A program made the translations under genes and the position numbers. From NCBI GenBank assembly GCA_963758525.1, contig CAVWVQ010000003.1:640001-704000 (forward strand): a stretch of DNA of 64,000 nt, in the 5' to 3' direction. This document shows positions 64 to 59,057 of the stretch, piece by piece; within the stretch, counting starts at the first letter, position 1; every line of letters begins with the position of its first letter. The DNA comes from an uncultured Phycisphaerales bacterium. Its GTDB lineage: Bacteria; Planctomycetota; Phycisphaerae; Tepidisphaerales; Tepidisphaeraceae. The notes below the pieces were generated by a model. It did not search any database. It worked only from the letters and a program-made list of their open reading frames with translations, and was not told where the DNA came from.

Positions 64-280
64 ACGACGGCTTCTTCCTTGCCGCCATGGTCCCTTGCGT
101 TTTCGTTGAGGTAGGGGTGTGGCGCTCGAAAGTGGCGATCGGCTCCGAGTAGGGCGGGATTCATCCCGCCGATTTGTTGGCCGGCTGAGAAAACGGCGGG
201 ATGAATCCCGCCCTACGATCGCAAAATCTGCAATCGCCACAAATAAAAGTTACACCCTTGAGGTAGTGCGCGATCAGTTC
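64..280 (-). pseudogene. Short GH29 fucosidase gene remnant (ELIAHYLNENARDHGGKEEAVV) interrupted by a MITE
   Basis: 64-114 plus 267-280 are near-identical to 7017-7081 inside the fucosidase gene at 6383-7891. Confidence 0.75.
115..257. mobile_element. 143-bp MITE, copy 1
   Basis: Ends GGGTGT...ACACCC; flanked by direct repeat TTGAGGTAG (106-114 and 258-266); same sequence as 8092-8234. Confidence 0.9.
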
Positions 281-807
281 TTCGCCCCCGTGTCGCCATC
301 GCCGGGCATGATCGTTTCTAACGGACCGACGCTGCCGTCGGGGCAGGTTGGCGATGTCACGCGGGCGTAGTTTTTGGGGTCATCTGCCAGCGAGAACCAG
401 TTTGATTCACCGGGTTTTTTCACTTCCGCGATCGGATCCCAGGGGATCAGCGCGGGTTTGGATTGCGAGGTTGGGGACTGCTTCATCCAAGCCTGGATTC
501 GCATAACCGTAGCCGGGTCGTACTTTTGCAGATACGCGACAAATGGCTTTCCCCCGGAACAGCGGAGCACTGTCGCTCCATATGCGGTTGTGCCGTTGTG
601 ATCAAAGGGCGGAAAGTTGGAGACGCTGTCCTGGAAATAGGTTTTGCCGTCGTCATCAGAAAAGAACGCCCGATCGGAGCGAAGGGCGTGATGCCTCGGC
701 GTGCCCGAGAATTGCCACGCGACCAAAAGCAGGGTGCCCGCGATGATGGCCGTCGCGGCGATCATCACAACTCCCGTTCTCTGATTCAACCATTGGCGAA
801 CGCCCAC
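274..807 (-). CDS. Conserved hypothetical membrane-anchored protein (prepilin-partner family, copy 1)
   Basis: N-terminal TM helix; motifs AFFSDDDGKTYF, VKKPGxxxW, CPDGS; four paralogs at 46.7-52.3 kb. Confidence 0.8.
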   Translation of the reverse strand: MGVRQWLNQRTGVVMIAATAIIAGTLLLVAWQFSGTPRHHALRSDRAFFSDDDGKTYFQDSVSNFPPFDHNGTTAYGATVLRCSGGKPFVAYLQKYDPATVMRIQAWMKQSPTSQSKPALIPWDPIAEVKKPGESNWFSLADDPKNYARVTSPTCPDGSVGPLETIMPGDGDTGAKN

Positions 808-822
808 GGCATCTCCGGGACC

Positions 823-1749
823 TTATTGATCGATGCGCCAGTAAGGATACGAAAATCCGCCGGTCTTCGCATCGGCGTTGAAGCCGGCAGGGGTGCTGGC
901 GTACATGTCGGCTTCCATCGTCGTATTCACGTACCAGGGGAGCGAGGGACGCGGAATTGTTTCAGCGTGCCCGTCCATCAAAAGAACGTTGGTATACCCG
1001 GTCTTCTGCAGTGCCAGCGGCGATGACTGGTTTCCCTTCCCATGGCGATTGATAAGGCGCCAATACAGGTTGTAGTAGGCATGAAGTCCGGATCCATCGA
1101 AGAGGAAGACCACTTCGGAGGACTTCATCTGCACGAGCTTGTAGCCGCTGGTGAACTGGTCTCCTGTTGCCTGGCAGGGGGACTTATCGTACAGCCCTCC
1201 AGCAATCGGGGGCTTTACGTTGTTGTTGTTTCCGTTGATGCCGTAGCAGCAACCGACATAGAGAGTTTGCGGCGCGGGCGGCGAGGGCCGCAGCACCAGC
1301 GATTTATACGTCAAAAACCCGTCGATGCCGCCGGCGGGGTAGGTCGTGAAGCCGTTGGCGGTAAACGGGCCGTTCTCGCCGACATTTGGAGCGGAGGGAC
1401 AGTTGAGGACGGAGTCGTAATCGATTCCCGACGTGCTGGTTATCCCCTGCTCGGAAATATATCCCAGCGCGACAAGGGCGAGTGGCCAGAGATCTCCGAC
1501 GCTGGTGCTGCCCTTGTCGTAGAAGTAGCAAGGGAGCGCATATCCGTGGTTGTCGTTGCTATAAGACAGCGCCGCCTGCCCGACTTGGCGGAGATTCGAA
1601 AGGCACTTGATCGTGCGTGCCGATTCGCGGGCGGAGTTGAGGGCCGGCAGCAGCAGCGCGAGCAGAATCGCGATGATGCCTATGACGACCAGGAGTTCCA
1701 CAAGGGTAAAGCCTCGACCGCGGTTTTTCCGGTCCAGTCCTCGCATCAT
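823..1749 (-). CDS. Prepilin-type N-terminal cleavage/methylation protein (DUF1559/H-X9-DG-like)
   Basis: [26 protein letters not shown]-terminal [10 protein letters not shown]; start chosen at MMRG. Confidence 0.9.
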
Positions 1750-1911
1750 AACAAATTCGATCGCGCCTTCGCCGCTGTCGGCATCGGCGCGGGCAGACGT
1801 GAGATTACACTCGCCAATCATCGGTCCTGACCCCGCAATCTGGCGTTTAAATTAGCTGTCATCTTCGCCCCGACCAATAAAAATTTCCCGCCGCAAAGAA
1901 GGTGAAAGCGC

Positions 1912-3891
1912 TCAGCCTGCGCCTCTGGATTGCTCGACGACGGCGCGCCGCTTCCTCCGCGACGCCAGCATTGGAATGACCCCGGCCAGCACCAGAATGC
2001 CGCCGCCCGGCTCGGGAGTTGCGTTGTACCCGATCTCCAGATATTGCCCGCCGCCGCTGTTGATCGCCTCCAAATAGAACGAGGAGCCGGATCCCGTCGA
2101 ATTGCTTCCGGGAGCCCCGACGAACGCGCTGGTGTCGAGAGTGAACAGGCTGGAGGTGGTCGTGCCGGTGGACGCTCCGGTTGGGCCGGCGGTTGCAAGG
2201 TAAACTCCGGGCGTGAACGGGGTGCCGTTGGTGATGGAGGCGATTTCCCAAGTGTAGTTCTTCGTCCTATCGAAGTCGCCGATCTTGCCTCCCGGGCTGG
2301 TGAGGGAGATCGCAAACGTATTGCCCGCGCCGCCCCCCAGACCAGAGAGGGCCAGGGCATTCATCGAAACAAGATCCCATCCCGTCGAGCTTCCGGCGGC
2401 GCCGGTGCCGGCAACCCCGGTTCCAGTTCCGTTGGTTTCGTTGATCTTCGCGACGTAAGCGCCGCCTTTGGCCCACGTCTGGCCGACCGTCGTCGATGCC
2501 CCGTTCTGCGTTGTCAGGGTCCCGGTCACGTCGGTTGCGCCGGTTCCGGTGGTGGTCCCGAGCGTGCTTGCGGTACCGGTGCCGGCCGAAAGCTTGCTGC
2601 CGGCGGCAATGGTCAGGGGACCGTTGACCGTCCTGAACCCGCCAAGCGCCTGCCCGCTGGCGAGCGCGAAACCGCCGGTGATTCCGGTGATGTCAAGCGT
2701 CGCGGCGGTGGCAGCGGAACTCCCCGCGGTAATCGCCCCCGAACTGGCAATGTTGTTTGACGCGCTGGAGAGCGCCAGCGTGCCGGCGGCCACGGTTGTG
2801 GCGCCCTTATATGTGTTCGCCGCCGAAATCGTCAGCGTGCTGGAGCCGGCCTTGGTGAAGGCGCCGGTCGCCAATGTTCCAACTTGAAACGCGGTAGCAT
2901 AGGTGGTGACGGTATTTCCCGTGCCTGCGTCAATTGTCCCCGTAACCCCGTCCTCGATTTTAATCTTGCCGGATAAATCGTCTATAGCGGCCCCATTGCC
3001 TCCGTTATTACCGATCCAGAGTGTTGCGTCCCCGGTGAAATCGAAGCCGTTGGTCGCCGTCACTTTAGAGGCATTCCAATTGGTGCTCAGCTCGAATGTC
3101 CCGCCGTTCAGTTGAACCTGAGTGATGGTTCCATTAAAGCCACCGGAGTTGGCGAACAAGCCGGAGCCCTTCTTGATGATGGTTCCGGTCGTCTGGCCAA
3201 CAGGGTTGTTAATCCGGCCAAGGTTCGTATTGCCGCCGCCGTCGATCGTCAGCGTCTTGCCATTGATGTTGATCGAACCGGCAGCCGTGCCGGCGTTCAG
3301 CGTCAGCGCATCGCCTGTGCCAACAAACCACGTTTGGTTGTTCTGTACTGTGCCGTTCCACGCGCTGGTCCCAGTCGCTCCCACTTGCAGATTTTTGTTG
3401 AGGTTGTCGTCGATCCAGATGCCGACATTGGAGGTGCCGTTAACGGTCTGGCCTCCCGTAAAGTTGAAAGCTGAGGTCCCGTTGGTATTCACGATCGTGG
3501 TGTTGCCAACGGCTCCGGTCAGCCAAATGGCCCCGACTGTTATCGCACTGGCGGTGGAAAATGTCGGCTGCGTTGCGGTGACCCGGTTGAATTCGGCAAT
3601 GTCGTTTGTGCCAGGAGCTGCTGCCGGATCGGGTGTGTCCGCTGTGCCACTGGTATTCCAGTTGGTGTTTGTGGTCCACGGCGCACTGCCCGGCGCCGCA
3701 TCCCAGTAAATTGTTGCCGCTTGAGCCGAGGGGGAGGGAAGCAGCGACTGCGCGACCGTCAATGCGGCGGCGGAAGCCACCAGCACGAGAGAGTGTCGCG
3801 CGGCTCTACGGCGCCGCCCGCTCCAGTTGGCGTTGTTGAAAAAGGCTTCTTTTGCTGAAGTTCCGGCACACACACGGGGCTGCTTTTGCAT
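1912..3891 (-). CDS. PEP-CTERM surface protein with autotransporter-associated beta-strand repeats (1)
   Basis: Long signal peptide; TKAGSSTLTISAANTYKGATTVAAGTL repeat; C-terminal PEP + TM + RRKRR. Confidence 0.9.
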   Translation of the reverse strand: MQKQPRVCAGTSAKEAFFNNANWSGRRRRAARHSLVLVASAAALTVAQSLLPSPSAQAATIYWDAAPGSAPWTTNTNWNTSGTADTPDPAAAPGTNDIAEFNRVTATQPTFSTASAITVGAIWLTGAVGNTTIVNTNGTSAFNFTGGQTVNGTSNVGIWIDDNLNKNLQVGATGTSAWNGTVQNNQTWFVGTGDALTLNAGTAAGSININGKTLTIDGGGNTNLGRINNPVGQTTGTIIKKGSGLFANSGGFNGTITQVQLNGGTFELSTNWNASKVTATNGFDFTGDATLWIGNNGGNGAAIDDLSGKIKIEDGVTGTIDAGTGNTVTTYATAFQVGTLATGAFTKAGSSTLTISAANTYKGATTVAAGTLALSSASNNIASSGAITAGSSAATAATLDITGITGGFALASGQALGGFRTVNGPLTIAAGSKLSAGTGTASTLGTTTGTGATDVTGTLTTQNGASTTVGQTWAKGGAYVAKINETNGTGTGVAGTGAAGSSTGWDLVSMNALALSGLGGGAGNTFAISLTSPGGKIGDFDRTKNYTWEIASITNGTPFTPGVYLATAGPTGASTGTTTSSLFTLDTSAFVGAPGSNSTGSGSSFYLEAINSGGGQYLEIGYNATPEPGGGILVLAGVIPMLASRRKRRAVVEQSRGAG

Positions 3892-42537: not shown

Positions 42538-44966
42538 TCAATTGCCTGGCTTCTTTGTGTCAGCGGCCTTCTTCCTTGCTGCCGGTGGCGGAAAATCCTC
42601 GTGCCCGGACGAAAGAATCTCCGTCAGCTCTTTAAGAGTGTATGGCTTATCGCGCCTGGCCGTTTCCTCGCGCACTTTTGCGATGTCCGACGGCTTGAGA
42701 GGGGGCGCCTTGTTGCCGAACGCGTTGCGCGCGTAGGTGAGAATGGCGCTGAGCCAGTCGTCGTCGAGGAAGGGGAAGCCGGCCATCGTGTTGGGATAGG
42801 TTTTGCCGCCGTCGTTGGGACCTTCCAGGCCGTGAAGAACGATTCGGCAGACCAGTTCCCGGTCCCCTTGCAGCCGCTTCGAGCCTGCCAGCGGCGGTGC
42901 CAGCGTCAGGCCGGCCGCGGCGCCGGGCACCGGCGCGCCCCTTCCATCCACGCCATGACACGTGATGCAGGTCTGCATGAAATAGTCCTGGCCCTTGGAG
43001 TAAATCGCGGCAAGTTTTGGATCCTTTTTCGCGAGAGCCGCCAGTTTGCGCGCTCGGCCGCAGTCCCGGAGATACGGTCTTCGTACTCCTTCACGATGCG
43101 CGGGACGACATCATTTGCCGGACGGCTCGCAGCCAGTGCATCGACGCTCTTGAGGTCTTGCGGCTCCTTCATGGACAGCAGTGAGAGGCAGTATTGCGTC
43201 ACCACCTCCGGGTCGGGGTCTGTCGAAGCGGCCTTGAGCGAGCTTACGATTTGCGGATCGCGCTTCCGGATCAATGGTTCGCTGATGCGCACCGCCGCCG
43301 CGCGGACGTGGGCATCGGAATCCTTCATCGCGTGAATTAACAGCGATGGGTTGGTTGCGTTCAAACCATCGAGCGTCCAAAGTGCGTGAAGTCGGCCCAA
43401 TGGGCTCGCGCCGGTCCGCGCGAGCGTCTCCAGCGCCCCGACGACCGATTTGTCGCCGCGAATAACGATCAGCTTCTGTGCGGTGTCGCGCCACCAGCCG
43501 TTCGGATCGGAGAGATGGGCGACGAGTTGCGCCGGCGTTTCGTCGAGCATCCGCGGGGCCGCCCGGCGCTCGAAGCCATCGTGAACCAGTCGGTAAATCC
43601 GGCCCCCGTTCACGTTCTTGTCCAGCCCATAGCTCACGATCTGCGGACGGAGAAACGAACCCTCTTTCGTCCAGTTCGATTCCTGGATGATGCCGTGGTA
43701 AAGGTCGCAAATATAGAGGCAGCCATCCGGACCTGTTGCCGTGTAGACGGGGCGGAAGTTTGGGTCGGTCGACGCGATGAATTCGTTTTCGCCGTAGACG
43801 TTGTTCAGGACGCGCATTCCGTGGTCGTCGGTGAAACGGGCCCGGCGGATGAGACGGCCGACGGGTTCGGGGAGGATGTAATCCCCTTCCATATCCTTCG
43901 GAAGCGCGTCTCCGCGATAGATGCAGCCGCCGGCGCATCCGGTGAAGTGATTCAGGCCTCCGTTGGGCCATACGCGATTGAGGCCGCCCTGGACGTCATA
44001 CAGTTTTAAGAGTGGATGCACCTCCACAAAGCCGGGAGCCATCTCACCCTTGAGCGTCAGCGGGCCGTAAATGTAAGGAATTTGAAAATCAAATGCCGGG
44101 TTCTCGCCGCCGGCGGTGTTGAAAACCATTCGGCCGGTGTCGTCCATCGCGATGCCCCACTGGCCGGAAGCGCCGGGAATCTTCTCGGCTTCCAGTTTCC
44201 CATCCGCATAGTGAAATCGTTTTCCGTCGTGCGTGATATAGATCGAATTATCGAGATTCCACAGAAGTCCCGACGGCTGATGCTCCAGGTTGCCGGTTTG
44301 CGGACCACCCTGAAACGCCAGCGTCTTTTCATCTGCGACGCCGGTGTTCTTCGTGTCGCGGTAGCTGTAGATATCCTGCGTGTCGGTCTCGCGAATCAGG
44401 ATGCGATCGTCCAGCGGAAGGACCATTCGCGGCAGCACCAGATTGTCCGCGAAGACGGTGTGCTTCGCGTAAGACCCGTCACCCTTTACGTCTTCGAACC
44501 GGGAGACTCTGCTGATCGGCTCCTTCTCCCGTGTGCCGTTCACGTCGAGCATGTACGATCGCATCTCCGCGACATACATCCTGCCGTTGCCGTCCCAGAC
44601 ACAAACCACCGGAGAAATAATCGTCGGCTCCGACGCCACCAGCTCCAGGTGATAGCCCGGCGGAAGGTGGATCGAGGCAATGGTCTGCTCCGGCGTTCGC
44701 ATGTGCATGTCGATCCCAGGCGGCGGCGCCACGAAGTCCTTCGCGGAACCTGCCGCCGGCGCGGCGCCCGGCTTTGCCGGCTGCTGCGGCGCGGCGGCGG
44801 CGGATCCAACGATGCAGGCGCAAAGGCCCGCGAGACATACGGCCAGCACAAAACCCGCCGCGCACCTCGCGCAGAGGCGCGGCGACGCACAGAAAAGCCA
44901 CATGCCATCACCTGCTGCTCCGCGGCTCCGCGGCTCTGCGTGATCACGATCCAGACTGTTCCACAT
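42538..44966 (-). CDS. PVC-type membrane-bound dehydrogenase-like protein with HEAT repeats and cytochrome c; frameshift near 43045
   Basis: LPPGYHLELVASEP, FRPV...GPDG, HEAT-like RLHALWTL, CITCHG heme motif. Confidence 0.85.
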
Positions 44967-45014
44967 CGAATAATCCTCTTTCGTCGATCGAGCATCTCAA
45001 TGCTGAGCGCTCGA

Positions 45015-46425
45015 CTATCTGAGTCGAACATCCTGCGTCGAGGCTGGCAACCCCGCGGATCGATCGGGAAAATGATCGAACTCCAATTTCACCACCATCA
45101 CTGTATCAGCCAGCTCATTGGCAGGGAGGTTGCGAAGCCGGAGACATTTTTTCTGCCCGATGTATTCGCTGGGAAGCAACTCCACCGCAAACTCGACCGG
45201 GCGTCCATCATTCAGCAGCGTCGCCCGCCTCGGCGCAACATCAATGGGCCCGAGCTTCACAGCTTCGGTCAATGGCTCGCGATGCAGATGAACGTAGAGA
45301 TTGTTTCCCTTGCGCGTCAGCAATACATTGCGGTTGGAAATCAACTCAGAACAGGGCTCCGCGTTCTCCATCGCTTCCTTCACGGCATTATACCATTTGC
45401 CGATGCGCCCGAGGATCGCTGTTTCGTTGGGGCCGATCGTTCCATCAGACATGGGACCGACGTTCAGCAGATAATTGGCATCGCGCGCCAGATACTTGTC
45501 AATGCTGCGCATGAGGTGAACGTCGGTGTAGTAATCCTCGTCCTTTCGGAAGCCCCAGCTTTCGCTGCCGACCGACTGATTGGCTTCGGTCAGCTTGTCA
45601 AACCGCAAGACCTCTTCGCCCGTCGAATCGTAATCGCGTTCTGGCGTACCGAAGTCGCCGGCATCGTAGCCGCGGTTGTTGATCACCGCGGCCGGCTGCA
45701 GTTTGCGGATCATGTCGTTGATCGACGGGTCGTGGTGCTTGTCCACGTTCATGTCCCACCAGAATTCGTGGATCTGGCCGTAGTTCGTGCAGAGTTCGCG
45801 AACCTGCCCCTTGACGAAATTCCAGATACTTCGCCAGATCCGGCTCGTCGCCCGCCTGCGGCGGCAGTTCGTGGTGCCGGCCCTGATTCGGGTAGTTCTT
45901 TTGATGCCAATCAACGCACGAATAATACAGGCCGAGCGGAATCCCTCGCCGATGACACGCATCGGCCAGCATCTTCAGCACGTCCTTGCCGTATGGGGTG
46001 TTGACGGTGTTGTAGTTCGTGAGCTTGCTGTCCCAGAGGCAGAACCCGTCGTGATGCTTGGTCGTCAGGCAGATGTACTTCATGCCGACGCTCTGCAGCA
46101 GATCGAGCCATTTGTCCGGATCGAAATTCACCGGATTCCACTGCTGCTGGAACTTCTGGTACTCGGCGCGTGGTACGCGGGCGCGCCACTGATATTGCTC
46201 GTGCCAGGCGGGGATGGAATACAATCCCCAGTGAACGAACAGGCCGAACCGCTTCTCGAAAAACCAATCTCGTGCGTCGTGGAACCGAGGCGGCGCGGAG
46301 GGCATCACCGGCTGCGTCGCAACGGCGCCGGCCGCCGACGCCGATTGAAGGAGTGCCGGGGTACCAGAGCATCCCGAGGCGATCGCGGCGCCCGCGGCGG
46401 TGCGAAGGAAATCGCGTCTGTTCAT
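45015..46425 (-). CDS. GH29 alpha-L-fucosidase (3), Tat-exported; frameshift near 45820
   Basis: NRRDFL Tat motif; RFGLFVHWG, TTKHHDGF, ELCTNYG...WWD, LLNVGP. Confidence 0.88.
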
Positions 46426-46549
46426 TATCATCATCCCATGCAAGATACGTGATTGCAGGAATAACTAGCGGGTTTCTGGAAATTTGTTGCGGTGGTTACC
46501 GGAATAGCTGCGATCCCCTCCTCGATGCGAAATCTCAGACTCGCCACGA

Positions 46550-46692
46550 GGGTGTAACTTTTATTTGTGGCGATTGCAGATTTTGCGATTGTAGGGCGGG
46601 ATTCATCCCGCCGTTTTCTCAGCCGGCCAACAAATCGGCGGGATGAATCCCGCCCTACTCGGAGCCGATCGCCACTTTCGAGCGCCACACCC
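46550..46692. mobile_element. 143-bp MITE, copy 3 (inverted orientation)
   Basis: Reverse complement of copies 1 and 2 with one mismatch seen; target duplication CGCCACGA (46542-46549 and 46693-46700). Confidence 0.9.
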
Positions 46693-46707: not shown

Positions 46708-47226
46708 ATGGGGAGCATTACCCCACGTTAGACATTGAACGAGCGGCCGGTGTATGCGACAGGCTGCGTGGGCGCGCTCCTGGCGATCGCCATTTTTTCA
46801 ATGTGGCGGCTCCTCCCTCGCCATCCCCGTAATCTCGTCGGCCCGGGCCGGGCGTTTTTCACCACCGATGATGGCAAGACCTGGTTCACCGGGCAGGCGA
46901 CCGATATTCCCCCGCTCGCTTGCGGCGGCAAGACTGCCTATTGGGTTGAGGTCTACCGGTGCTCGCGCCGCTCGTCATTTGCCGTGAACCTCGAAACATT
47001 CGATCCCGCGGACAAGGCGAAAGTGGACCAAGCGATCGCCAGCGGTCGCGACTGGAACGATGTGGCGCACCTGATGTCCGGGCTCCATATGCTGGTCAAG
47101 AAGCCGGGAGATGAGAATTGGATCGCGGAAATCCCCGAGAATGAGAGCCGTTTTCGACAGATCATCCGACCGGTGTGTCCCGATGGATCGGCAGACGGAC
47201 TTGAAAAGGTCGATCCGAATGAATGA
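46708..47226 (+). pseudogene. Prepilin-partner family copy 2, with in-frame TAG at codon 8
   Basis: ATG 46708 reads MGSITPR*TLNERP, versus MGVRERLNEKP in a paralog; all family motifs follow. Confidence 0.65.
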
Positions 47227-47632
47227 CGCTGCGGCGCCTTGCCGATGCGGCCGTGTACTTGTGCAGTAAGAAATTTGTTGCAGCGGTTCTGGAATAGCGA
47301 CCAGTCCTTGATGACGGAGCGCACATTCCAACGCCCTTTACGCTTCGATCGTCGGGAGTTTGCCAATCGAATAATTACAGTAATCGAGGCGTCGATAAAG
47401 TGCCGAGTTCGGACGGAACGGGCTCCGCGACGTATCAGGCAGGAGATTCCGGCGCAGGTAACACCAGTTTTCAGAATGGTTTACCACGACGAATTGAGTG
47501 AACCCGGGCACGCAAGGTGACTTCGCGCAGATTGTCAGGCAATTATCGTTGTGCAAATGGTCATCCGGTCGCTAGGATACCAGATAGCGAGGATGCCAAA
47601 ATTGTTTTCATTTCCCTGCCGGCGAGGATTCG

Positions 47633-48565
47633 ATGATCGCAGGACAAGATTCAACGTCGAGAATGAACCATGGCACGATGAGCAGACGTCTGCGGGAGCT
47701 TAGCCGCTCCCGCCGGCCCTTACACGGTTTTACCCTCGTCGAGCTTCTCGTGGTCATCGGAATTATCGCACTCTTGATATCGGTGTTATTGCCCGCGCTG
47801 AGCAAGGCAAGAATCGCGGCGCAGCAAATCAACTGCCTCTCGAACATTCGTCAGTTGTCGAACGCGGTGCAGATGTACGCCAATGACAACCGTTGGCGGC
47901 TTCCGCGATATACAACCAACGTCGCCACCACCGAAACGCCGAAATGGAAGATGAATTGGGTTGGGCTCATCTTTCCGTACACGAATTACAATGCCCAGAT
48001 TTTCGAGTGCCCGATGCGCACTTTTATCAGCACCACGATCGGCACGCAGACAATCGGCAATATGACATACAAGGCGCGGCTTTGCTATGCGGTGAACGGC
48101 ATGATCGGTGGTGGTCAGACAAACCAGAATCAGAGCTGCCCGTTTGGTCCGGTCTACGATCACGCGAGCACGATATCGCCCGGTTACTTCGACGACAGCA
48201 ACGAACATACGTTGAAACTCTCCGATGTTGCGTACGATACCATCATGCTGACAGAGTCAATGCGCGCGGGAGGCGAGCAAAGCATTTCTGAATTCAACAC
48301 CGTACCGAATGGCTACGCCGGCATCCGCAGCGTGTCGTCGAGCAATCACAACGGAAGATCCGCATCCTTCGCTTATGCCGACGGACATTGCGAGACTGTC
48401 AGCATTCAGTATATGATGTACGACTCACATTACAGGGTTGATACAGCCAACACGCCGTCTGTTGGCGTTGTCGGCAATAATAACTCCGGAGCCGGAGATG
48501 TGCTTATCAACTACAATAACACAAATCAGCCCCAGGGATACTGGACTGCCAGAGGGAACGACTAG
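47633..48565 (+). CDS. Prepilin-type (DUF1559/H-X9-DG-like) protein, array unit A
   Basis: [29 protein letters not shown]. Confidence 0.9.
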
Positions 48566-48599
48566 ACGGTCAGCTGTGCAGATTCAGAAGGATCCCACA

Positions 48600-49109
48600 A
48601 TGGGCGTTCGCGAGAGGCTAAACGAAAAGCCCGCGCTGGCAGCCGCTGGTATTGTCATCCTGCTGACAGTCGCAGCTTATTTTTGCTGGCGAGCGATCGA
48701 TCATCCTCCCAGGGCAATCGCTGGGCTGGGTAAGGCTTTTTTTTCAACGGATGATGGCAAAACGTGGTTCACGGCCCCAGCCTCGAACATCGCGCCCTTC
48801 GACGACAATGGCACGACAGCTTATCGCGTTGAGGTCTATCGTTGTTCGCACGGTTCGGCTTTTGTCGTCAATCTGGAAGCTTTCAGCGCGGAGGACAAGG
48901 CAAAAATTGAGCGCACCATCGCCGACGGACAGGACAGCAGTGCAGTGCGCGGGATGGAAGCGGACGCTCCTCCTCTCGTGAAGAAGCCCGGAGACCGTGA
49001 GTGGGTAAAAATGACCGAGAAGAACGAAGCGCGATATCGCGCAATCGCAAGGCCGGTCTGTCCGGACGGATCGGCCGACGGACTGGAGAAGGTGGATCCA
49101 AATGAGTGA
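48600..49109 (+). CDS. Prepilin-partner family copy 3
   Basis: MGVRERLNEK, TM, AFFSTDDGKTWF, VKKPG, CPDGSADGLEKVDPNE. Confidence 0.85.
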   Translation: MGVRERLNEKPALAAAGIVILLTVAAYFCWRAIDHPPRAIAGLGKAFFSTDDGKTWFTAPASNIAPFDDNGTTAYRVEVYRCSHGSAFVVNLEAFSAEDKAKIERTIADGQDSSAVRGMEADAPPLVKKPGDREWVKMTEKNEARYRAIARPVCPDGSADGLEKVDPNE

Positions 49110-49198
49110 TCCCGACGGAATCCGAATATGTGGAATGGCTTTTTTTTTTGGCGTCACGAGAGTGACGCGTCTCGGTCTGTTACGAGGAATGAAATCCG

Positions 49199-50125
49199 AT
49201 GAGCCTCCCGAAACGCACATCCAATTGCTGGCCTGCTGCCCGGAAACGAAATCGCATTTCGAGGCTCAAAGCATTTACGCTCGTTGAACTGCTGGTTGTG
49301 ATCGGCATCATCGCCACGCTGATCGCACTGCTATTGCCCGCGCTGAGCGCCGCCCGCTTCGCCGCAGGCCAACTCAAGTGCCTGTCGAATGTCCGGCAAC
49401 TGTCACAGGTGATCAATATGTACGCTGCGGACAATCGAGGGTATTTGCCCCGATTCAGCATCACATGGTACAATACGAGTTACACGACGATTTCCGCTCC
49501 AAAATGGAAATACAATTGGACCGGCCTCATCTTTCCCTACACGAACAAAAGTACGAGCCTCTTCGAATGCCCCTTGAGGCAATTCACCAGCAATAACGTG
49601 GGACAGATGTCCTCCTCCATCGTGGGGAATGCGGTCTATCTGGCCAGGCTTTCTTATCAGGTCAACGGAATCACCGGTGGAGGCAATGCGAATAAATGCC
49701 GGGCGTACGATCACCCATTCGGCGAAGTTTACGATGTCTATGTACCTGCCAATGGGGGCTTTAATGATTCAGAAAACACAATGCAGATCAGCAACGTTTC
49801 TCCACGCTGCATTATGCTTCTTGATGGATGGCTCGACGAGACAAGCATCAAGATTTTTGGCAATGATAAGGTTGACTCAAACACAAACGGTTATGGATAT
49901 GGGGAAGTCACTGGAATCCCTGTCAGCAGCCATAACGGCAAGTCGGTCTCAATTGCATTCTTTGACGGCCACTGCGAAACGGTGCAAACCAGCTATTTAC
50001 TCTCCGACGTGAACTACGGACACAGCGCGGTACAAGCCAATGGAGACTTAAATATACCTTATAATAACACCGGTTTTGGGGGCAAGGGATTTGGGGGCTA
50101 TTGGGGCGCCGAGTTTGCGCCTTAG
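49199..50125 (+). CDS. Prepilin-type (DUF1559/H-X9-DG-like) protein, array unit B
   Basis: [29 protein letters not shown]. Confidence 0.9.
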
Positions 50126-50164
50126 CAGTCCTTGCGAAGCTAAGGTTTTGCCGGCCGGTCCGCT

Positions 50165-50704
50165 TTGGCAACATTGCACCTACCTGGAGCATCGACGGCT
50201 TTGCGCGACGTTCTAAACAAATACCCGGGTTATGCGATTGCAGGCGTGGTTGTCATCATGCTGGCAGGATTTTACACTGCATGGAAGTTCATGGATCAGG
50301 GGCCTCGGAAAATCCAAGGCCTGGGACAAGCGTTCTACTCTGTGGACGACGGCAGCACCTGGTTTCGAGCGCCAGCATCCAATATTCCTCCATTCGATCA
50401 CGACGGCAAGCTTGCTTACGAAGCGGAAGTCTTCGAGTGCAGGCACAGCTCAGCTTTTGTGGCAACTCTGCAAAGCTACCCTTCCAACGTCAAATCTCGT
50501 CTGGACAAAGCCATCGCCGACAACCGCCCCACCGCCGAGATTCTCGACATCGAAGCCAGGAATCCGCCGATGGTGAAAAAGCCGGGCTCCTCGGCTTGGA
50601 TTAGCCTTACCCCGCAGACCGGACCGCAATACATGCAGGCGGTCTCTCCAATTTGTCCCGACGGCTCGGCCGACGGTTTGGCGCGAGTGAATCCCAACGA
50701 TTGA
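50165..50704 (+). CDS. Prepilin-partner family copy 4
   Basis: LRDVLNK, TM, AFYSVDDGSTWF, VKKPG, CPDGSADG; start uncertain. Confidence 0.8.
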   Translation: MATLHLPGASTALRDVLNKYPGYAIAGVVVIMLAGFYTAWKFMDQGPRKIQGLGQAFYSVDDGSTWFRAPASNIPPFDHDGKLAYEAEVFECRHSSAFVATLQSYPSNVKSRLDKAIADNRPTAEILDIEARNPPMVKKPGSSAWISLTPQTGPQYMQAVSPICPDGSADGLARVNPND

Positions 50705-50834
50705 CCAGATTTGTCCGCATCATGAGGAAATGCTGGAATTTCGAAAGATTGTCAGAAAATAATGCTTGTTTTGAAAGACGCTACGATGCTAAAATGCTGA
50801 ACGGCGAAGAGAGACGAACTTTGTCCACTTCCTG

Positions 50835-51791
50835 TTGGGAATCAACCAATTGAATACGGACACGAGACACTTGACCGAGCGAACATTAAAACGACGTGTT
50901 CCGCATCGCAATGCCGGTTTTACGCTTGTAGAGCTTCTGGTGGTGATCGGCATCATCGCAATTCTCATATCGATTTTGCTTCCGGCACTCAGTAAGGCGC
51001 GGATCGCCGCCGGCCAAATCAGCTGCCTATCAAACGTTCGTGAGCTGAGTTCGGCAATTCAAATGTATGCCAACGACAATAAGTTCTATCTGCCGAGGTG
51101 GACTGCCGCTTTTCCTAACCACGCCGTTACATCGACATGGAGATGGGGGTGGTGTCCTCTTGTGCTTCCGTACACCAACTTCAATGTGAAGGTATTCGAG
51201 TGCCCTGTCCGCCAGTATTACGAGACGACTAGCCCGGGCACGATCACGTTAGGGGTGGCCAAATACCAGGCGCGACTCGGTTATCAAGTCAATGGGATGC
51301 AGGGTGCCGGCAACGCCTCAAAGTTGAGGACCTATGACCACCCATTTGGAGCGGTATACGACTATCCGCTTGCGTCGAATTCATTCCAGGATTCAATGAA
51401 CACCATGAAGATCACGCAGGTGGGCCCGTACACGATCATGATGACCGATTTCGTACGGGGCGGCGGTGAGCAGAGCTGCAATGATAACGGCAGCTTCACC
51501 ACGAGCGCCAAGGGCGCCACGGACTATTCGGATATCAGAAACGTCTCTGCGAGCAGCCATTACGGAAGGTCGGCGTCGATCGCGTTCTTTGATGGACACG
51601 CGGAAACCGTCTCCACAAGTTATCTGCTGTATGATGCGACTTACCGCATCAACAGTGGCGCAAGTCCTACGGTTGGACCAGTCGCCAACGACGCCAGCGA
51701 AGCTGGCGATCTGCTCATCAATTTCTACAACAGCAGTTCTCCACCTCCCAGCCGTTGGAGCGCACAGTGGTACCCCGGCGCGCCGTTTTAG
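50835..51791 (+). CDS. Prepilin-type (DUF1559/H-X9-DG-like) protein, array unit C
   Basis: [29 protein letters not shown]; start uncertain. Confidence 0.9.
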
Positions 51792-51826
51792 AAAAGCTCA
51801 ACAAATAGCAATCCTCGCAGAGCCGT

Positions 51827-52333
51827 ATGGGAATCCGCGAAATCTTGAACCAGAAGTCAGAGTACGCGATTGCCGGGATCGTTGTCGTTATAATCATCGC
51901 TGCAATAATCTGCTGGCGATCTCTCCCGGGTGATCCCAGAGGAATCACTAAATTGGGGAAGGCATTCTATTCAACCGACGACGGGAAGACCTGGTTCGTC
52001 GACGATGCCTCGCACATCCCTCCATTCGACTACGACGGTGCAACCGCCTATCAAGCCCAAATCTTCAAGTGCGCCCACGGCGGACAATTCATCGCTTATT
52101 TGCAGAGCTACAGCGCGGCTGACAAAGAAAAAATCGAAAAGGCCATTGCGGACGGTCAGTCCGGAACCGACGTCCGCGGCTTGGAACTCATTCTTGGCTG
52201 CGCGGTGAAGAAGCCTGGCGAAAGCAACTGGGTAAAGAACACCCCTGCAAGTAGCGCACTCTATGCGGAAATCACCAAACTAACTTGTCCGGACGGCACG
52301 GGCGACGGGCTTGAAAAGGTCGATCCGAACTAG
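51827..52333 (+). CDS. Prepilin-partner family copy 5
   Basis: MGIREILNQK, TM, AFYSTDDGKTWF, VKKPG, CPDGTGDGLEKVDPN. Confidence 0.85.
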   Translation: MGIREILNQKSEYAIAGIVVVIIIAAIICWRSLPGDPRGITKLGKAFYSTDDGKTWFVDDASHIPPFDYDGATAYQAQIFKCAHGGQFIAYLQSYSAADKEKIEKAIADGQSGTDVRGLELILGCAVKKPGESNWVKNTPASSALYAEITKLTCPDGTGDGLEKVDPN

Positions 52334-52472
52334 GGCGTGCGCTGCTGGTTGCGGAGTAGCCGGCGTGATTGATCAGGTTTGTAATTTCGAAACGCGTTTG
52401 TTCTTGGGCGACTGCCGCGCGGCCAACGCGTTCCCGATCCGCTATGTCGAGTGCCACCGAATCGAAACAACA

Positions 52473-53513
52473 ATGTGGACAATCAAATATCGCTTTACGG
52501 CGGCGGCCACTTTCGCATTAGCGACCTTCATCTCTTCGGCCGCGTCCGGAGTTGAGATGCGAAGTCTGTTCGGCTCATCAACGCCTCCGCGGCCGAGGGC
52601 CTATAAAACGATCGCCGCCGTTGAACTCAAGCTCTACTTCTTCACACCGCCCGACTGGAAGCCCGCTGATCATCGATCGGCTGTCGTGTGCATTCACGGC
52701 GGCGGCTGGACTTCGGGAACGGCTGATACGTTCTTCCCTCATGCACGCTACTTCGCCTCGCGCGGCGCGGTCGGGTTCAGCATCGAATACCGGCTGGTCA
52801 AGGCGGATGGTCCGGTCGTCGCGGACTGCCTGGCCGACTGCAAATCGGCTATTCGCTACATCCGCTCGCATGCGGCCGAGCTTGGGGTCGACCCGGATCG
52901 CATTGCCGTGCTCGGGGATTCAGCCGGAGGGCACCTGGCGGCAGCGCTCGGCACCATCGACGGATTCGATGATCCCGCCGACGACCTGTCCATCAGCGCC
53001 AAGCCAAACGCGATGGTCCTCTGCAACGCCATTTTTGATTTCAACCAGGACGGATTCATCAAAACCATCATCGGTGGAGCGGCTTTGGCGAAACATCCGG
53101 CTCCGGCGGCGACACAGCCTACGCCGCAACAGTCGGACCTGGCGCGTCAACTCTCACCGCTCTTCTCGGTGCGGCCGCACGATCCACCGGCGCTGGTGAT
53201 GCATGGCTTGGACGATCATGTGGTGTCGCCCAACCAATCGCGTCAGTTCGACGCTGCGATGAAAGCAGCTGGCAATCATTGTGAACTGATTTTGTTGGAA
53301 GGTTGCCGTCACGCGTTCATCGTTCCCAGGTATACCGCCCCGGAGAAAGTTGTCGTCGGCGCCATCCGATCGGCGGACATCTTCCTGGCCAGCCTCGGCT
53401 ACCTCGCCGGCGATCCCACCCTCGAGGTTTCCGAACCGCCTGCCTGGGTCATCAAGCAAAAGCCCGTCAAAGCGAACGAAGCAACTCCCGCTGCGACGCA
53501 ATCAACAAGGTGA
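52473..53513 (+). CDS. Secreted alpha/beta-hydrolase (HSL-type esterase, possible carbohydrate acetylesterase)
   Basis: IHGGGW, GDSAGG, HGLDD, GCRHAF motifs. Confidence 0.88.
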   Translation: MWTIKYRFTAAATFALATFISSAASGVEMRSLFGSSTPPRPRAYKTIAAVELKLYFFTPPDWKPADHRSAVVCIHGGGWTSGTADTFFPHARYFASRGAVGFSIEYRLVKADGPVVADCLADCKSAIRYIRSHAAELGVDPDRIAVLGDSAGGHLAAALGTIDGFDDPADDLSISAKPNAMVLCNAIFDFNQDGFIKTIIGGAALAKHPAPAATQPTPQQSDLARQLSPLFSVRPHDPPALVMHGLDDHVVSPNQSRQFDAAMKAAGNHCELILLEGCRHAFIVPRYTAPEKVVVGAIRSADIFLASLGYLAGDPTLEVSEPPAWVIKQKPVKANEATPAATQSTR

Positions 53514-53561: not shown

Positions 53562-56500
53562 ATGAAAATAAGAAACTTACTCTGTAAAGCGGCTGTCATC
53601 GCTGGCGTGTACACGGCGGGTGCTTTTCCGATCGCCCTGCATGGGGCTGAGGAAGTACCGCTTCCGGCAACACCGCCGCAGGATCAGGGGCTCCCCTACA
53701 CGCGCACTGCCCGCGCCAGAGCATTGGAAAATATTCGCAATTGCCTGGTGGTTTTCCCCGGCAGTCGATATGCCTATGTCAACGGCCTGGAGGTTCGCCT
53801 CGACGAGAAGAACTGGCATGACGAGGCGCTGGCGAAGGATGGAACTGTTTTCGTTCCGCAGAGCGCGGTCTCGCTGGTGGAGTTGGCAGACGTCAAGGCG
53901 GGCCCTGCTCCTTCCTACCTTGCCGACCGGTGGATCTACACGCTGTTGCGACCTGCCGTCCTCCTGCCCCGGGGTGTTGCGACGATTGACGTCGACGGCC
54001 GGCCTTACGTCGACTTGATCGCCTACGCCAGGGCATTGCGGATCAAGACGTATCAGCATGCGCGCGGGTTTGTCCTGATCGGCAGCGATCCGCCAACGCT
54101 CGAGAAGCTTTCGCCGCCCCTGCTCGATTCGATGGTCACGCTTTTCGACACGCCCGAGAAGTTTGCGGATCCGGACATCGCCACCAGATACATTCCCACT
54201 CTCATCAGGCAGGGGAAGTGGACCGACCATGTGAAGGTCACCGCCGAACAGCTCAAGATTCTCAACGGGCCGGAGACGAAGTGGCCGACGGCGCCGCAGT
54301 CGTCATACGACTTCACGGGATTCAATTACAAATTACTCGGCTCCAAAGTTCCGCCGCCGGGGGTCTATCCACGTGTTCTCTTCAGCCCCGAGGACGTGCC
54401 GATGCTGGCGGAGCGAATCAAGAGCAGTCGCACCGGCCAGATGGCGCTCATTGAGATGAAGTATCTCTTCGAGAAAAGCTGGTGGAATCCCAAGACCAGC
54501 GACGGAGTGATTTTCCAGAAGCTTGCCAGCGGGGACGTCGCGGGGCTGGAGTTTGACTCTCCGCCGAATATCTCCCCCACCGCCATTTCCAATTTGTTCA
54601 AGGGCCAAAAGCCTGGCATTTTCAATACACACATCCAATACAACCCTGAATGCCTGACGGCGATGGCGCTGTATTGCCTTCTGACCAATGACGACGTGCA
54701 TGGACGTCAGGCGGCCGCCGCAATCGCAAGCTTTTACAAGTTGCGCGAGCCGATCCTCGACGAGGTCAACCAGATCAGCGACACGGAGTTTGGAGGGGTT
54801 TATGTACGCCCCAATGGCGAGACAATCACCATGGCGGGCAACGGCGCCGTCACACACTGGCGTACGGTGCAAAACGTCATTTCGCACATGAATCTGGGCC
54901 TTTCTCTCGACTTTGGCGGCAAGTGGATGACGCCGGAAGAGAAGGACGTCATGCGCCGCGTCATCGTGAAGGCGACCTACGGCAAACGCCCGTATGGTCA
55001 GGACGGATCGATCCGTTTCCGCGATGTGAATTGGGTCGCCTGGGATCTGCCGCCGTTTCTCGCTGTGACGGCGATCGAAGGTCTGGAGGGATTCGACCGC
55101 GAGGCGTACGAGTCCGACTGCGCCACTGTCCGGGCGTTCTGTGATTGGGGAATCGACGAAAACGGCGTGATCTACGAGAGCAACGGGAAGACACCAGGAA
55201 GCCTGCAGTTTCAGACCCTCTCCATGATCACGCTCGCCCGTCGCGGTGAAAACCTTTTCGGTCATCCCCACTGGCGGAAGTTGCTGGAGGGCCAGATCGA
55301 GATGACCTCCCCCAGCGGCCGCGTGACGGTCAACAGCGGCACGCAATACGTTCCCTACAGCCGCCAATACTTCTCGCCGCAGATGATCGATGAATACAAG
55401 GCCTTCTTTCCCGACGAGCGCAACGCGGACTACCTGCTCGGCCGCGCCAAAATGTTTGTGGAAGAGGGCATGGACCAGGAGACGATGCGCGAGTGGTCGC
55501 TCTTTGACTTCTCACCCGACGAGTACCGGGCGAAGGTGGCCAGCATCCTACGGCTTCGCCTGCCGAGCCCGACCTATCCCGGCTTCGTCCATGGCATGCT
55601 CTACGACACCGACATCCAGCCCACAACACGTGCCGATCTGAAGCTGCCGCTCGACTTCAACGACCCTATCCATGGCGTCTTCTCCAGCTACAGCGACCAG
55701 ACTCCCAATGCGACGTGGATCAACATGATGGTGCGGCCCGATCATTACATTGGCGCCGGCCATCATCATTCCGATGCCGGCATGTTTCACTTCTCCGCGC
55801 TGGGTGTGGACTGGTTCACGCAAACGCAGTTCAGCGGGAATTACGAGGGGAAATACTACAACCTGGTGCAGGTGGACGGTCATTCCGAGCCAGAAGTGAT
55901 GCCGGGAGGAAACGCCTACCAGGCCGCCGCGACCTACCTCGGCGCCAACTCAAGTGCTAATGGAGCATTCGGCAGCGCGGATCTGACCGACTCCTACAGT
56001 TATCGCTGGCAGACCCAGCCGGCGCCGGTCTGGCCGCCCAATTCCAGCTCGATGGGATGGGAGATGGAGCCGTCCCCGCGCATCCTCGAGATGTTTGCCG
56101 GGACGGCGCATTACAAGATGCGCTTCTGGTGGGCCAACTACAACTACTCCAATTACATGGCCACCAGCCGCGCACCGTGGAATCCGATGCAGTATGTCTA
56201 TCGCAGAGTGGGACTCGTCCGCGGCAATCATCCCTACGGCGTGGTGATTGACGACCTGAAGAAGGACGACGCAACGCATCTGTACCAGTGGGTTGCCATG
56301 CTCAATGGCGGGGTCTGGCAGGCGAAGGTCGACGGACTTCCCGCAGGCCAGATCGCGCTGGCCTTCCGCGAGCAGGATCCGAAATCGAACGGAATGATCC
56401 GCGCGGGCGAGCCGCCGATCGTTCCCCAAAATGGCGAGCCGTTGCTGCTGGTTTGTGCGCTGGGCGCCGGCGCCGATGCTGGCGGTCATCTGCCGATCGA

Positions 56501-56780
56501 GGTCACCACAGAAACCGGCCCGCCGGACAAGAAGGGCGCTGAACAACTCTACGCCCGGCTGGCCATCAACCACTCGGGAGCCGACGTCCACTTTAAGGTG
56601 CTTCTGATTCCGTTCAGAGCCGGCGAAGTGCTTCCCAGTCTGTCGTGCGATGCGGGCGCAAGCAAAGCGACGCTTGCATGGTCTGATCAGAACGACGAGC
56701 TGAATTTTGCATCTGACGCCAAAGGGCCGTCCGGAATCAGCGTGAGCCGCGGAGGTCAGAGCGTGCTGACCTCGAAATGA
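53562..56780 (+). CDS. Heparinase II/III-like protein (paralog 2) with N-terminal extension
   Basis: Signal peptide; PPPGVYPRVLF, AIEGLEGFD, GHHHSDAGMFHFSALG, DDLKKD...HLYQW. Confidence 0.75.
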   Translation: MKIRNLLCKAAVIAGVYTAGAFPIALHGAEEVPLPATPPQDQGLPYTRTARARALENIRNCLVVFPGSRYAYVNGLEVRLDEKNWHDEALAKDGTVFVPQSAVSLVELADVKAGPAPSYLADRWIYTLLRPAVLLPRGVATIDVDGRPYVDLIAYARALRIKTYQHARGFVLIGSDPPTLEKLSPPLLDSMVTLFDTPEKFADPDIATRYIPTLIRQGKWTDHVKVTAEQLKILNGPETKWPTAPQSSYDFTGFNYKLLGSKVPPPGVYPRVLFSPEDVPMLAERIKSSRTGQMALIEMKYLFEKSWWNPKTSDGVIFQKLASGDVAGLEFDSPPNISPTAISNLFKGQKPGIFNTHIQYNPECLTAMALYCLLTNDDVHGRQAAAAIASFYKLREPILDEVNQISDTEFGGVYVRPNGETITMAGNGAVTHWRTVQNVISHMNLGLSLDFGGKWMTPEEKDVMRRVIVKATYGKRPYGQDGSIRFRDVNWVAWDLPPFLAVTAIEGLEGFDREAYESDCATVRAFCDWGIDENGVIYESNGKTPGSLQFQTLSMITLARRGENLFGHPHWRKLLEGQIEMTSPSGRVTVNSGTQYVPYSRQYFSPQMIDEYKAFFPDERNADYLLGRAKMFVEEGMDQETMREWSLFDFSPDEYRAKVASILRLRLPSPTYPGFVHGMLYDTDIQPTTRADLKLPLDFNDPIHGVFSSYSDQTPNATWINMMVRPDHYIGAGHHHSDAGMFHFSALGVDWFTQTQFSGNYEGKYYNLVQVDGHSEPEVMPGGNAYQAAATYLGANSSANGAFGSADLTDSYSYRWQTQPAPVWPPNSSSMGWEMEPSPRILEMFAGTAHYKMRFWWANYNYSNYMATSRAPWNPMQYVYRRVGLVRGNHPYGVVIDDLKKDDATHLYQWVAMLNGGVWQAKVDGLPAGQIALAFREQDPKSNGMIRAGEPPIVPQNGEPLLLVCALGAGADAGGHLPIEVTTETGPPDKKGAEQLYARLAINHSGADVHFKVLLIPFRAGEVLPSLSCDAGASKATLAWSDQNDELNFASDAKGPSGISVSRGGQSVLTSK

Positions 56781-56873
56781 GCTGGCGGAAAACCCGCGGA
56801 GCGAGATGAGAATGCAGATGAGGAACGACCCTCGAGACGTTCTTCCCCCCTCTCCCGATATCGCGGGAGCGGA

Positions 56874-58846
56874 ATGACGATGCAGATACCCAACGATATT
56901 CGAGTGGTTCTTCCCCCCTCTCCCGGTACGCCGGGAGAGGGTTGGGGTGAGGGTGATTTTGAATATCGAACGATTGTCGAAATTCGGAAACAGGAAACCC
57001 CGGCGAATCGAACAACTTTCAACGCTCCAAATCACCCTCACCCCAACCCTCTCCCGGAGTACCAGGAGAGGGGCAAAGCGCGCCGGCATCATGCGACTTT
57101 ATTGGCGAAGATTGCGATCGCCATGATGATGCTGATTGCAGCGCGCTCATCCGCCGCCGAGTATCAATTCTCCGTCCCCACCGGCCCGCGCGATAGCCGC
57201 GCATTTCTTTGGATTCCCCCGCAGTGCCAGCATGTGCGCGGAATTCTCCTTGCCAGCCAGGTGATTCTTGAAAAGCGCGTCTGCGATGATCCGATCATCC
57301 GCGACGCATGCGCGCGTGAAAACCTCGCGATCATCATTTTGTATCGCAGCCCCTTTGGTGAATTTCATTACCACCGCGATCTGCCGCGGGCAAAAGCCAT
57401 TGAGAAAATCCGCGAGCTGGCAGCGGATCAGAAGATCGACGTCCAAATTGCTGACAAGAAAAGCGGAGCATCGCCACCCGATGCAAATCACTCCGACATA
57501 TCCAACGGCGAAACAGCAGATCAGATTCTCCAACGCATTCTCGACCGACTCGCTGGCGAGTCCAGCTATTCCGAAATCTCCACCGCACCGCTGCTAACCC
57601 TCGGCCATTCCGGCGGCGCCATCTTCGCCTGGAACGTCGCCTACTGCTGGCCGCAACGTATTCTCGGTCTGATCGGGCTGCATTCAGCGGTGATTCTCCC
57701 GCCCCCCTGGGATCCCAAGGCAACACCGGCTGGATTCCCCGCGCTGTGCATCAGCGGGGAATACGAGAGTTGGGGTAATCCCAGCGAACCGCTCGACAAG
57801 CACTGGCGCTGGCTCCGCGGCGGAATCCTCAACATGCGCGGCTGCTACGACGCCCAGGCGTGCGAGGTGGTTCAGCCGGGCTGCACCCACTTTAATTGGG
57901 ACACTCCACTCGCACAGGTCACGGCGAAGTTCATCGAGAAGGCTGCCCGCTATCGCATTCCTGCCGACGCTCCGGGGAACGAGACCAACCCAACGCAGCC
58001 CGCGCCCTGAAAACGCTGCCGATGGATTCTGGATGGCTGACGGATGTCGAAATGATGTCTCCCAGCCACTACCCCCCCGCTCCTTACTCCCAGTTCAAGC
58101 ACGATCCATCGCTCGGCTTCTGGCACATGGATGAGGAGATGGCGCAGGCAATCGAGAATTTCCCCAACTCCTATGGCGGAACGAAGGATCAGCGCGTCAC
58201 GTTTGTGCAGGACGGAAAGCCGGTCCCCGCAAAGTGGATTGATGAGCTGAAGTTCGAGCCGATCGACGACGGGATGACCGTAAAGCTCGCGGCAGACTTT
58301 TTAACTGAGACGCCGCAGGGCGTCGCCGGCGCGGGCCAACTGCTCGGACACGCCCCCGGACCCATCAAATTTCGCCTCATCGGCGGCTGGGGAGGCGGCG
58401 GCGAGCAGACCGGACCGGATACGTTTCGGATCCGCTTCGACCACTTCGGTCTCTCGCAGGGCTGCTGCAATATGCAGGTGATGGCCTACCAGGAGGGGGA
58501 CGCCATCTATAAATACGCCGAGCAGCCGTGCCAGATTTCTTTTCCTGAGAAGAACGCCGCGGGGGCAAAACAGACAATCAGCTTTCCGCAGATCGGATCG
58601 GTCAAGTGCACCGAGTCAATGATCCACCTGGGGGCTACGTCAGACTCAAAACTTCCGGTTAACTATCTGGTTCGTTGCGGCCCGGTCGAAGTAGACGGTG
58701 AGAACCTCCGCCTTACGCCCATCCCTCCGCGCAGCAAGTTTCCGATCAAGGTGACGGTGGTGGCCTATCAATGGGGTCGGCCGATCCCGCCGCTGGTGCA
58801 GACCGCGACGCCGGTGGAGCAAACTTTTTCAATCGAGAAGCCATGA
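56874..58846 (+). CDS. Secreted alpha/beta-hydrolase-like protein (paralog 2); frameshift near 58000
   Basis: AFLWIPP, LGHSGG; C-terminal FPIKVTVVAYQWG lies in the second ORF. Confidence 0.7.
56913..57073. repeat. CCCTCTCCC-type REP doublet (REPIN-like)
   Basis: Inverted pair: CCCTCTCCCGG...CCGGGAGAGGGTTGGGGTGAGGG / CCCTCACCCCAACCCTCTCCCGG...GGAGAGGG. Confidence 0.85.
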
Positions 58847-59032: not shown

Positions 59033-59057
59033 CAAGACCCCTATATTCCTTTGGTCC

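Follow-up and report, generated by a model that had tools for sequence, protein, structure and literature searches.

Pilin-like proteins of the DUF1559 type are among the largest orphan families of Planctomycetota. The expansion of these proteins has been published, and the part of PMC8567305 that deals with them describes their genes as often flanked by signal-peptide genes; the passages on the domain in PMC10632474, PMC4807772 and PMC2754498 leave its function without assignment. Polysaccharide uptake by planctomycetes is presented in the relevant section of PMC12673574 as a process whose mechanisms and players are still unknown, with pili under discussion, and in that of PMC11131199 as an open question, and term searches of PMC11266412 and PMC11685898 brought up no pilin passage. 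Here we describe a locus in the genome of an uncultured Phycisphaerales bacterium (Tepidisphaeraceae; GenBank assembly GCA_963758525.1, contig CAVWVQ010000003.1, positions 640,001 to 704,000 of the forward strand; this stretch of 64,000 nt is hereafter called the window), where genes for prepilin-like proteins (pilins A, B and C) are each followed by a gene for a small membrane protein, referred to as the partner.

Among described systems, the planctomycetal N_methyl plus SBP_bac_10 family (DUF1559, PF07596; TIGR02532, TIGR04294) shares with these pilins the prepilin motif, a DUF1559-type N-terminal helix, a C-terminal H...DG and the presence of many dispersed paralogs. The locus differs from it in its flanking gene, whose products form a single family of homologs that keep their membrane anchor uncleaved and lack a lipobox, in the H-X10-DG spacing, in the tandem arrangement of the cassettes and in the existence of a stand-alone partner copy. 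Type IV pilins and type II pseudopilins (PilA, GspG) are alike in the G/A|F-x-x-x-E cleavage motif followed by a hydrophobic helix, and machinery of their kind is encoded elsewhere in this genome. PilN/O and GspL/M, the inner-membrane alignment proteins of type IV pili and type II secretion, are bitopic, as is the partner; unlike in those systems, the cassettes contain no assembly genes, and the partner is multiplied with the pilins and not with the machine. The SusC/SusD polysaccharide utilization loci of Bacteroidota combine a repeated two-gene core with carbohydrate-active enzymes (CAZymes) and control by extracytoplasmic function (ECF) sigma factors and FecR. The present loci resemble them only in this layout, including the neighbouring ECF sigma and FecR genes; no TonB receptor lies near the cassettes, whose two genes encode a pilin-like protein and an anchor of the inner-membrane type. 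Asp-box proteins share one S/T-x-D-x-G-x-T-W hairpin with the partner, which differs in having a single copy and no propeller. In Akkermansia, a member of the Planctomycetes-Verrucomicrobia-Chlamydiae group, the passages on MUL2 in PMC13174399 tie pilin-like proteins to glycan uptake (pilin-like MUL2A and PilM-like MUL2B). MUL2 is a single four-gene locus with PilM, in contrast to the multi-copy two-gene cassette found here, a distinction drawn from the published description. A literature search that covered the main texts of mostly open-access papers returned no description of the partner family. The class-wide census, the split between stand-alone and cassette copies, the fusions and the controlled comparison of genomic context are new here.

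We propose that the partner may be a membrane-anchored accessory protein that binds the pilin head in loci for glycan foraging, with a single copy in general use and additional paralogs tied to particular cassettes, a reading that in our judgement has an even chance of being correct. It is built on linkage, co-duplication, class-wide recurrence, context enrichment and one fusion, from which we infer processing, topology, binding and ligand. The array occupies positions 46708-52333, all on the + strand, with four partner genes of ~170 aa alternating with three prepilin-like genes of ~310 aa (Table 1). The initial annotation had described a partner gene followed by three pilin-partner units, and both gene order and coordinates were borne out. 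The pilin-partner gap of ~35-40 bp that it gave agrees with pilins A (34 nt) and C (35 nt) and, depending on the start codon chosen, with B (39 or 75 nt), but not with the fifth partner of the window, which follows its pilin after 15 nt. Partner-to-pilin gaps are longer and more AT-rich than the short pilin-to-partner gaps, and a conserved upstream stretch precedes pilins A and C only, from which the cassette unit is taken to be pilin, then partner. This stretch is a predicted promoter/operator; a pattern built from its two sites matches nothing else in the genome than these two, each of which precedes an array pilin; a promoter scan was uninformative (5 sites versus 3.7 in shuffles). The units are old duplicates: where longer stretches of their DNA match, likeness is for the most part 66-71%, and this low value rules out an assembly repeat as the source of the array. 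The junctions of pilins B and C with their partners are bridged by short contigs from two low-depth sequencing runs that may include the source organism.

Table 1. Coordinates of the pilin-partner array and neighbouring features in the window.
Feature	Position	Strand	Description
Separate cassette	274..1821	-	Pilin 823-1821, then fifth partner 274-807
PATR-repeat protein with PEP-CTERM-like tail	1912..3891	-	Directly upstream of the 274..1821 cassette
Alpha-L-fucosidase (GH29, read in two frames)	45015..46443	-	Divergent neighbour of the array
143-bp MITE-like element	46550..46692	.	Ends GGGTGT...ACACCC, 8-bp target duplication; 15 nt before the partner 0 ATG
Partner 0 (orphan)	46708..47226	+	ATG 46708, in-frame TAG 46729, open from TTG 46735 (163 aa)
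Conserved upstream stretch, before pilin A	47530..47580	+	Predicted promoter/operator
Pilin A	47633..48565	+	Prepilin motif G|FTLVE; N-terminal helix of DUF1559 type carrying a Cys pair; variable head; H-X10-DG
Partner 1 (169 aa)	48600..49109	+	Membrane helix at the N-terminus, domain predicted to be periplasmic, two Cys
Pilin B	49199..50125	+	A|FTLVE; same subfamily as pilin A, 48% identical to A
Partner 2	50201..50704	+	TTG 50201 agrees with alignment; alternative start TTG 50165
Conserved upstream stretch, second copy, before pilin C unit	50747..50797	+	Predicted promoter/operator
Pilin C	50835..51791	+	G|FTLVE; 53% identical to pilin A
Partner 3 (168 aa)	51827..52333	+	
BD-FAE-type esterase	52311..53513	+	Directly downstream of the array
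MITE, miniature inverted-repeat transposable element.

Partner genes are tightly linked to pilin genes in this genome, as had been anticipated. It holds 29 partner matches (27 near full length and 2 fragments), 24 of which lie at most 1.7 kb behind a same-strand pilin motif (0.9% expected by chance), and a partner follows 23 of the 67 pilin-motif loci. The pilin comes first in nearly all cases, with a median gap of about 53 nt over 63 intact pairs. The linkage extends through the class: in six other Phycisphaerae families, sampled as 15 hand-picked positive genomes, half of the matches (19 out of 38) were found behind a pilin, two precede one, one follows a partner and 16 stand alone. A three-unit pilin-partner array is also present in family f103.

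Paired pilins and partners were also duplicated together. Pairwise similarities of pilins and of their partners were correlated in the 20 pairs of this genome (r=0.73) and over all 63 pairs (r=0.60), values reached in 0 of 2000 permutations in both cases, and pilin and partner had the same nearest neighbour in 11 of the 20 and 35 of the 63 pairs. The two trees have three of nine supported splits in common, one of them the array itself, against a mean of 0.11 after shuffling. Such correlated trees show co-duplication, not contact. A fusion protein of 852 aa in one relative (G342) consists of a signal peptide, DUF3352, a DUF1559 head and a partner domain that lacks the membrane helix and both Cys. 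A search for longer fused forms of the partner among 8000 candidates, itself a weak one, found none; the fusions described here came from searches of genomes. DUF3352-DUF1559 proteins in which a signal peptide replaces the prepilin leader are apparently widespread in the order (many frames of 720-800 aa), with instances at L142:1961-4519 and, in this genome, at C3:4222765-4224819; in G342, such a protein is fused to the partner domain.

A number of observations weigh against the proposed reading, and several of them favour the alternative that the partner is an independent periplasmic protein handling solutes or glycans, which shares an uptake locus and its regulation with the pilin but does not bind it. 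Among 158 unique matches in relatives (the best-scoring part of 369 matches, plus 31 loci and 4 class-level loci, and hence biased to top scores), only 58 follow a pilin, while 43 occupy a conserved pilin-free spot next to DUF883-like/holin-like or hldE genes, 52 lie at other sites without a pilin and 5 are at the ends of short contigs. No genome with a single match has it beside a pilin (0 of 34), in contrast to 35 of 92 matches in multi-match genomes, and exactly one pilin-free copy was present in 70 of 87 genomes, making the stand-alone copy the norm in relatives. In four genomes a lone partner is accompanied by 17, 25, 36 and 46 pilins, respectively, and in G348, a single contig of 98% completeness, the search matched 57 pilins but not one partner. 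The description of the partner as 'dedicated' could not be maintained given these numbers, and the single-match genomes together with G348 exclude an obligate one-to-one pairing. Tandem partner pairs and orphan partners occur as well. Inside the array, the branching orders of pilins and partners differ, with weak support, and co-duplication is expected from linkage alone. Among the matches listed for 141 genomes, none but the G342 protein covers the two domains; nine of its close relatives stop before the partner domain. In two other fusions (L279:2575-5439 and L280:2096-3535), the partner domain is C-terminal on unrelated exported proteins without a Pfam family; these two speak for a location outside the cytoplasm and for a portable domain of the docking type, but dilute the G342 fusion as evidence of pilin-specific contact. 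Against an independent protein stand the linked copies of seven families, which almost without exception have a pilin as their immediate upstream neighbour, and a fusion that unites exactly the partner and DUF1559 domains; we consider this alternative rather doubtful. The way linkage splits in the relatives and in the six other families indicates that stand-alone and cassette forms exist throughout the class. No clear stand-alone ortholog was identified in this genome, most of whose partners branch close to the stand-alone ones found in its genus (support <95).

The five partners of the window, 42-54% identical to the copy at 48600, have the DDG, Cys, VKKPG-W and CPDG motifs in common, as had been noted; the RxxLN start also listed for them requires, in partner 0, a stop codon as one of its x positions. 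These motifs characterize the subfamily and not the whole family, in which the Asp-box was found in 148 of 184 members, RxxLN in 84, VKKPGxxxW in 49 and CPDG[ST] in 36. The suggestion that the partner lies outside named families was supported: the window partners matched 0 Pfam families at E 0.01 and nothing meaningful in NCBIfam, no match to Pil/Gsp families appeared in either scan, and a Pfam scan of 150 members gave scattered weak matches only, among them the Asp-box (BNR, PF02012) in 28 members (best E 0.005). One N-terminal hydrophobic helix is present in 179 of the 184 members and a second in none, and the alignments show no conserved Cys after this helix of the kind that a lipobox would supply, in contrast to the lipoprotein partners of DUF1559 genes in Planctomycetia. 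Both Cys are present in 121 members, neither in 48 and a single one in 5, with 10 gapped at these positions. A pair that is kept or lost together fits a structural disulfide in the periplasm, and its joint loss in 48 of 174 members rules out a catalytic or metal-binding role of the two Cys in this family. In other Phycisphaerae families, the domain often has four Cys, including a CxxC, and no Asp-box; such four-Cys domains (L245, L247 and L260-L273; CxxC plus a C-terminal pair) may form two disulfides or a metal site.

The AlphaFold model of the full-length partner (mean predicted local distance difference test, pLDDT, 91.9) starts with a short helix, continues with a single helix of membrane length and ends in a mixed domain of compact shape. 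The soluble domain modelled on its own (pLDDT 94.5, predicted template modelling score 0.86) is a mixed alpha/beta domain of ~130 residues in which the Asp-box forms a strand-loop-strand. Foldseek returned no match for the full-length model at E 0.001, for which VIA gave helix matches only, and none for the soluble domain. A fold comparison of the latter gave a best Z of 2.5 (root-mean-square deviation 3.5, 62 aligned) and Z >=2 in 9 of 48,161 chains, values that do not by themselves prove a new fold. A PDB sequence search yielded only short Asp-box matches to sialidases (best E 0.002), and in the ESM Atlas three unnamed Planctomycetota clusters, and no named one, match the partner. An Asp-box beta-propeller glycosidase was rejected as an identity for the partner, given the single motif, the lack of a propeller and the replacement of the motif in other Phycisphaerae families. 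The Asp-box is also no sign of glycan binding: besides this replacement, the account of the motif in the consulted part of PMC2716378 gives it a structural role and makes it an unlikely ligand binder.

The family comprises 593 clusters in a word search and 2510 representatives at E 0.001. Genomes with a partner match number 126 of 141 in the order, 128 of 401 in the class and 63 of 328 outside its own family. Across the phylum, it was detected in 6 of 301 genomes, with only 9-25 candidates scored per genome, all 6 in class Phycisphaerae. Tandem pilin-partner cassettes were also seen in a bin labelled Verrucomicrobiae (L075), where the partners group with the copies of this genome, pointing to either transfer or mis-binning.

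All three array pilins exceed the cut-off of the prepilin motif TIGR02532 (16.3), with scores of 22.1 for A, 16.6 for B and 25.2 for C; with the Pfam motif (PF07963), pilin B falls just under the cut-off. Their matches to DUF1559 differ. Pilin A scores 23.7 against the PF07596 cut-off of 23.3, whereas C (18) and B (no match) do not reach it, and the match is confined to ~60 N-terminal residues; close homologs of the array pilins do carry PF07596. The H-X9-DG motif ascribed to them was not found, the actual spacing being H-X10-DG and the best TIGR04294 score 13 against a cut-off of 19. As this profile is too weak for counting pilins, a pilin alignment was used in its place. The array pilins are also far below the cut-offs of the named families GspG, PilA, ComGC and Verru_Chthon (e.g. 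GspG 35.5 versus 88.85 and TIGR02596 27.9 versus 70), and they form a small subfamily with 13 close matches, followed by thousands of weaker DUF1559-type matches. The loops of the subfamily are variable and the heads hypervariable. Three cassette pilins carry a ConA/LamG-like head, two of them over the cut-off (L003:8084-9124, L004:7606-8580 and L010:11186-12115). These pilins, in which that domain takes the place of the H-X-DG head, form a single clade and still retain the partner.

Pilins of this type had been said to lie near CAZymes, and glycan-degrading enzymes were indeed present at 11 of 19 cassette loci, compared with 4 of 20 random regions (Fisher p=0.02); the 8 cassette loci without a nearby CAZyme match count among the points against the proposed reading. 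PATR proteins were found at 12 of 19 loci versus 0 of 20 (Fisher p 1e-5) and FecR genes at 8 of 19 versus 0 of 20 (Fisher p 0.001). These counts were made by eye from Pfam results, with 20 random 11-kb regions as controls, which are narrower than the multi-partner loci; 117 of 140 neighbour proteins were scanned, the remainder being small, pilin pieces or already scanned. A PEP-CTERM-like gene, called by a regular expression on gene predictions made for this analysis, was present at a distance of up to 5 kb for 14 of the 23 cassette pilins, compared with 8 of the 33 orphan pilins and 6% of randomly chosen genes. The PATR/PEP-CTERM surface proteins are the strongest correlate and the CAZyme enrichment is modest, which, together with the hypervariable heads, would suit adhesins or surface-diversity modules for particle attachment or for evasion of phages or predators, whose CAZyme context would mirror the many glycan islands of the genome. 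Arguing in the other direction are regulators of the sugar type that recur among the loci, heads resembling lectins and, in five loci, a conserved dehydrogenase gene immediately before the pilin, and we regard this explanation as quite improbable. The dehydrogenase gene, which is D-2-hydroxyacid dehydrogenase-like, directly precedes the cassette pilin in L001, L002, L011, L013 and L015 and lies nearby in L014.

An ECF sigma gene accompanies most of the FecR genes of the cassette loci, and other loci have LacI or AraC regulators. Seven PF00593 matches to TonB receptors were found in the genome, none within 25 kb of a partner and the nearest at 28 kb. FecR enrichment without a nearby TonB receptor raises the idea of a surface-signalling input in which the partner would report on ligand at the pilin to a FecR-type anti-sigma and its ECF sigma factor, so that the pair would substitute for a TonB-dependent transducer. 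We regard such signalling as quite improbable: FecR is missing from 11 of the 19 loci, this array included, the other regulators occur in its stead at some loci, the predicted cytoplasmic tail of the partner has only about 10 residues, and several FecR proteins bear a LamG or NPCBM sugar-binding domain of their own, which suggests direct glycan sensing. FecR-type anti-sigmas without a nearby TonB receptor were seen at L007, L008, L009, L010, L012, L016 and L018 and at 4727-6097 of the window.

If the partner is an accessory subunit as proposed, the pilin would be cleaved by a prepilin peptidase and then either stay in the inner membrane or be assembled into a short fibre by type IV filament machinery encoded elsewhere; the genome has matches for 2 prepilin peptidases, 4 secretins and 11 assembly ATPases. 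The variable head would confer ligand specificity. The partner, oriented N-in/C-out with a disulfide-bonded domain, would dock on a conserved part of the pilin head in the periplasm and act as a stabilizing or loading subunit. One stand-alone partner could serve many orphan pilins, and copies duplicated with particular pilins would specialize on them, the array being an old tandem expansion of one cassette beside the fucosidase and the esterase. A broader scheme, which we consider unlikely, is that Phycisphaerae replace SusC/SusD by hypervariable, glycan-binding DUF1559 pilins and an inner-membrane adaptor (one general copy, with cognate copies for specialized pilins) that loads each pilin onto a shared type IV machine; this machine would pull the polysaccharide into the periplasm through a secretin, with ECF/FecR or LacI control and PEP-CTERM surface proteins. 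The pilin-partner pairs give a testable handle on possible polysaccharide capture by these bacteria. With a partner family that can be defined class-wide and has a one-copy housekeeping form, the uptake question can be tested by a single deletion, and the cognate and non-cognate pairs of the array are a ready test of specificity.

Partner 0, at the start of the array, has no pilin upstream and a TAG at codon 8 after its ATG, and could be a pseudogene or reflect faulty sequencing. The genome reads frameshifted in several places, such as the neighbouring fucosidase, so that the stop codon, too, may be erroneous; none of the listed contigs from the two low-depth runs spans the TAG at 46729. In 42906-46443, both the fucosidase gene and the DUF7133/cytochrome c genes are split over two frames, and one low-depth contig has an extra A behind 46437, consistent with indel errors in this assembly. 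The MITE-like element has 82 genome matches over 130 bp, most of them 98-99% identical, which indicates recent activity, and this genome-wide spread rules it out as a component of the pilin-partner system. Further copies in the window lie at 115-257 and about 8092-8233, and the element has an internal palindrome and target duplications of 8-9 bp. On the - strand of the window, 12603-27287 holds a run of large PATR-repeat genes followed by two partner-less DUF1559 pilins (15025-16738), several of these genes being in pieces. Downstream of the esterase, 53562-62937 contains five large open reading frames with no Pfam match.

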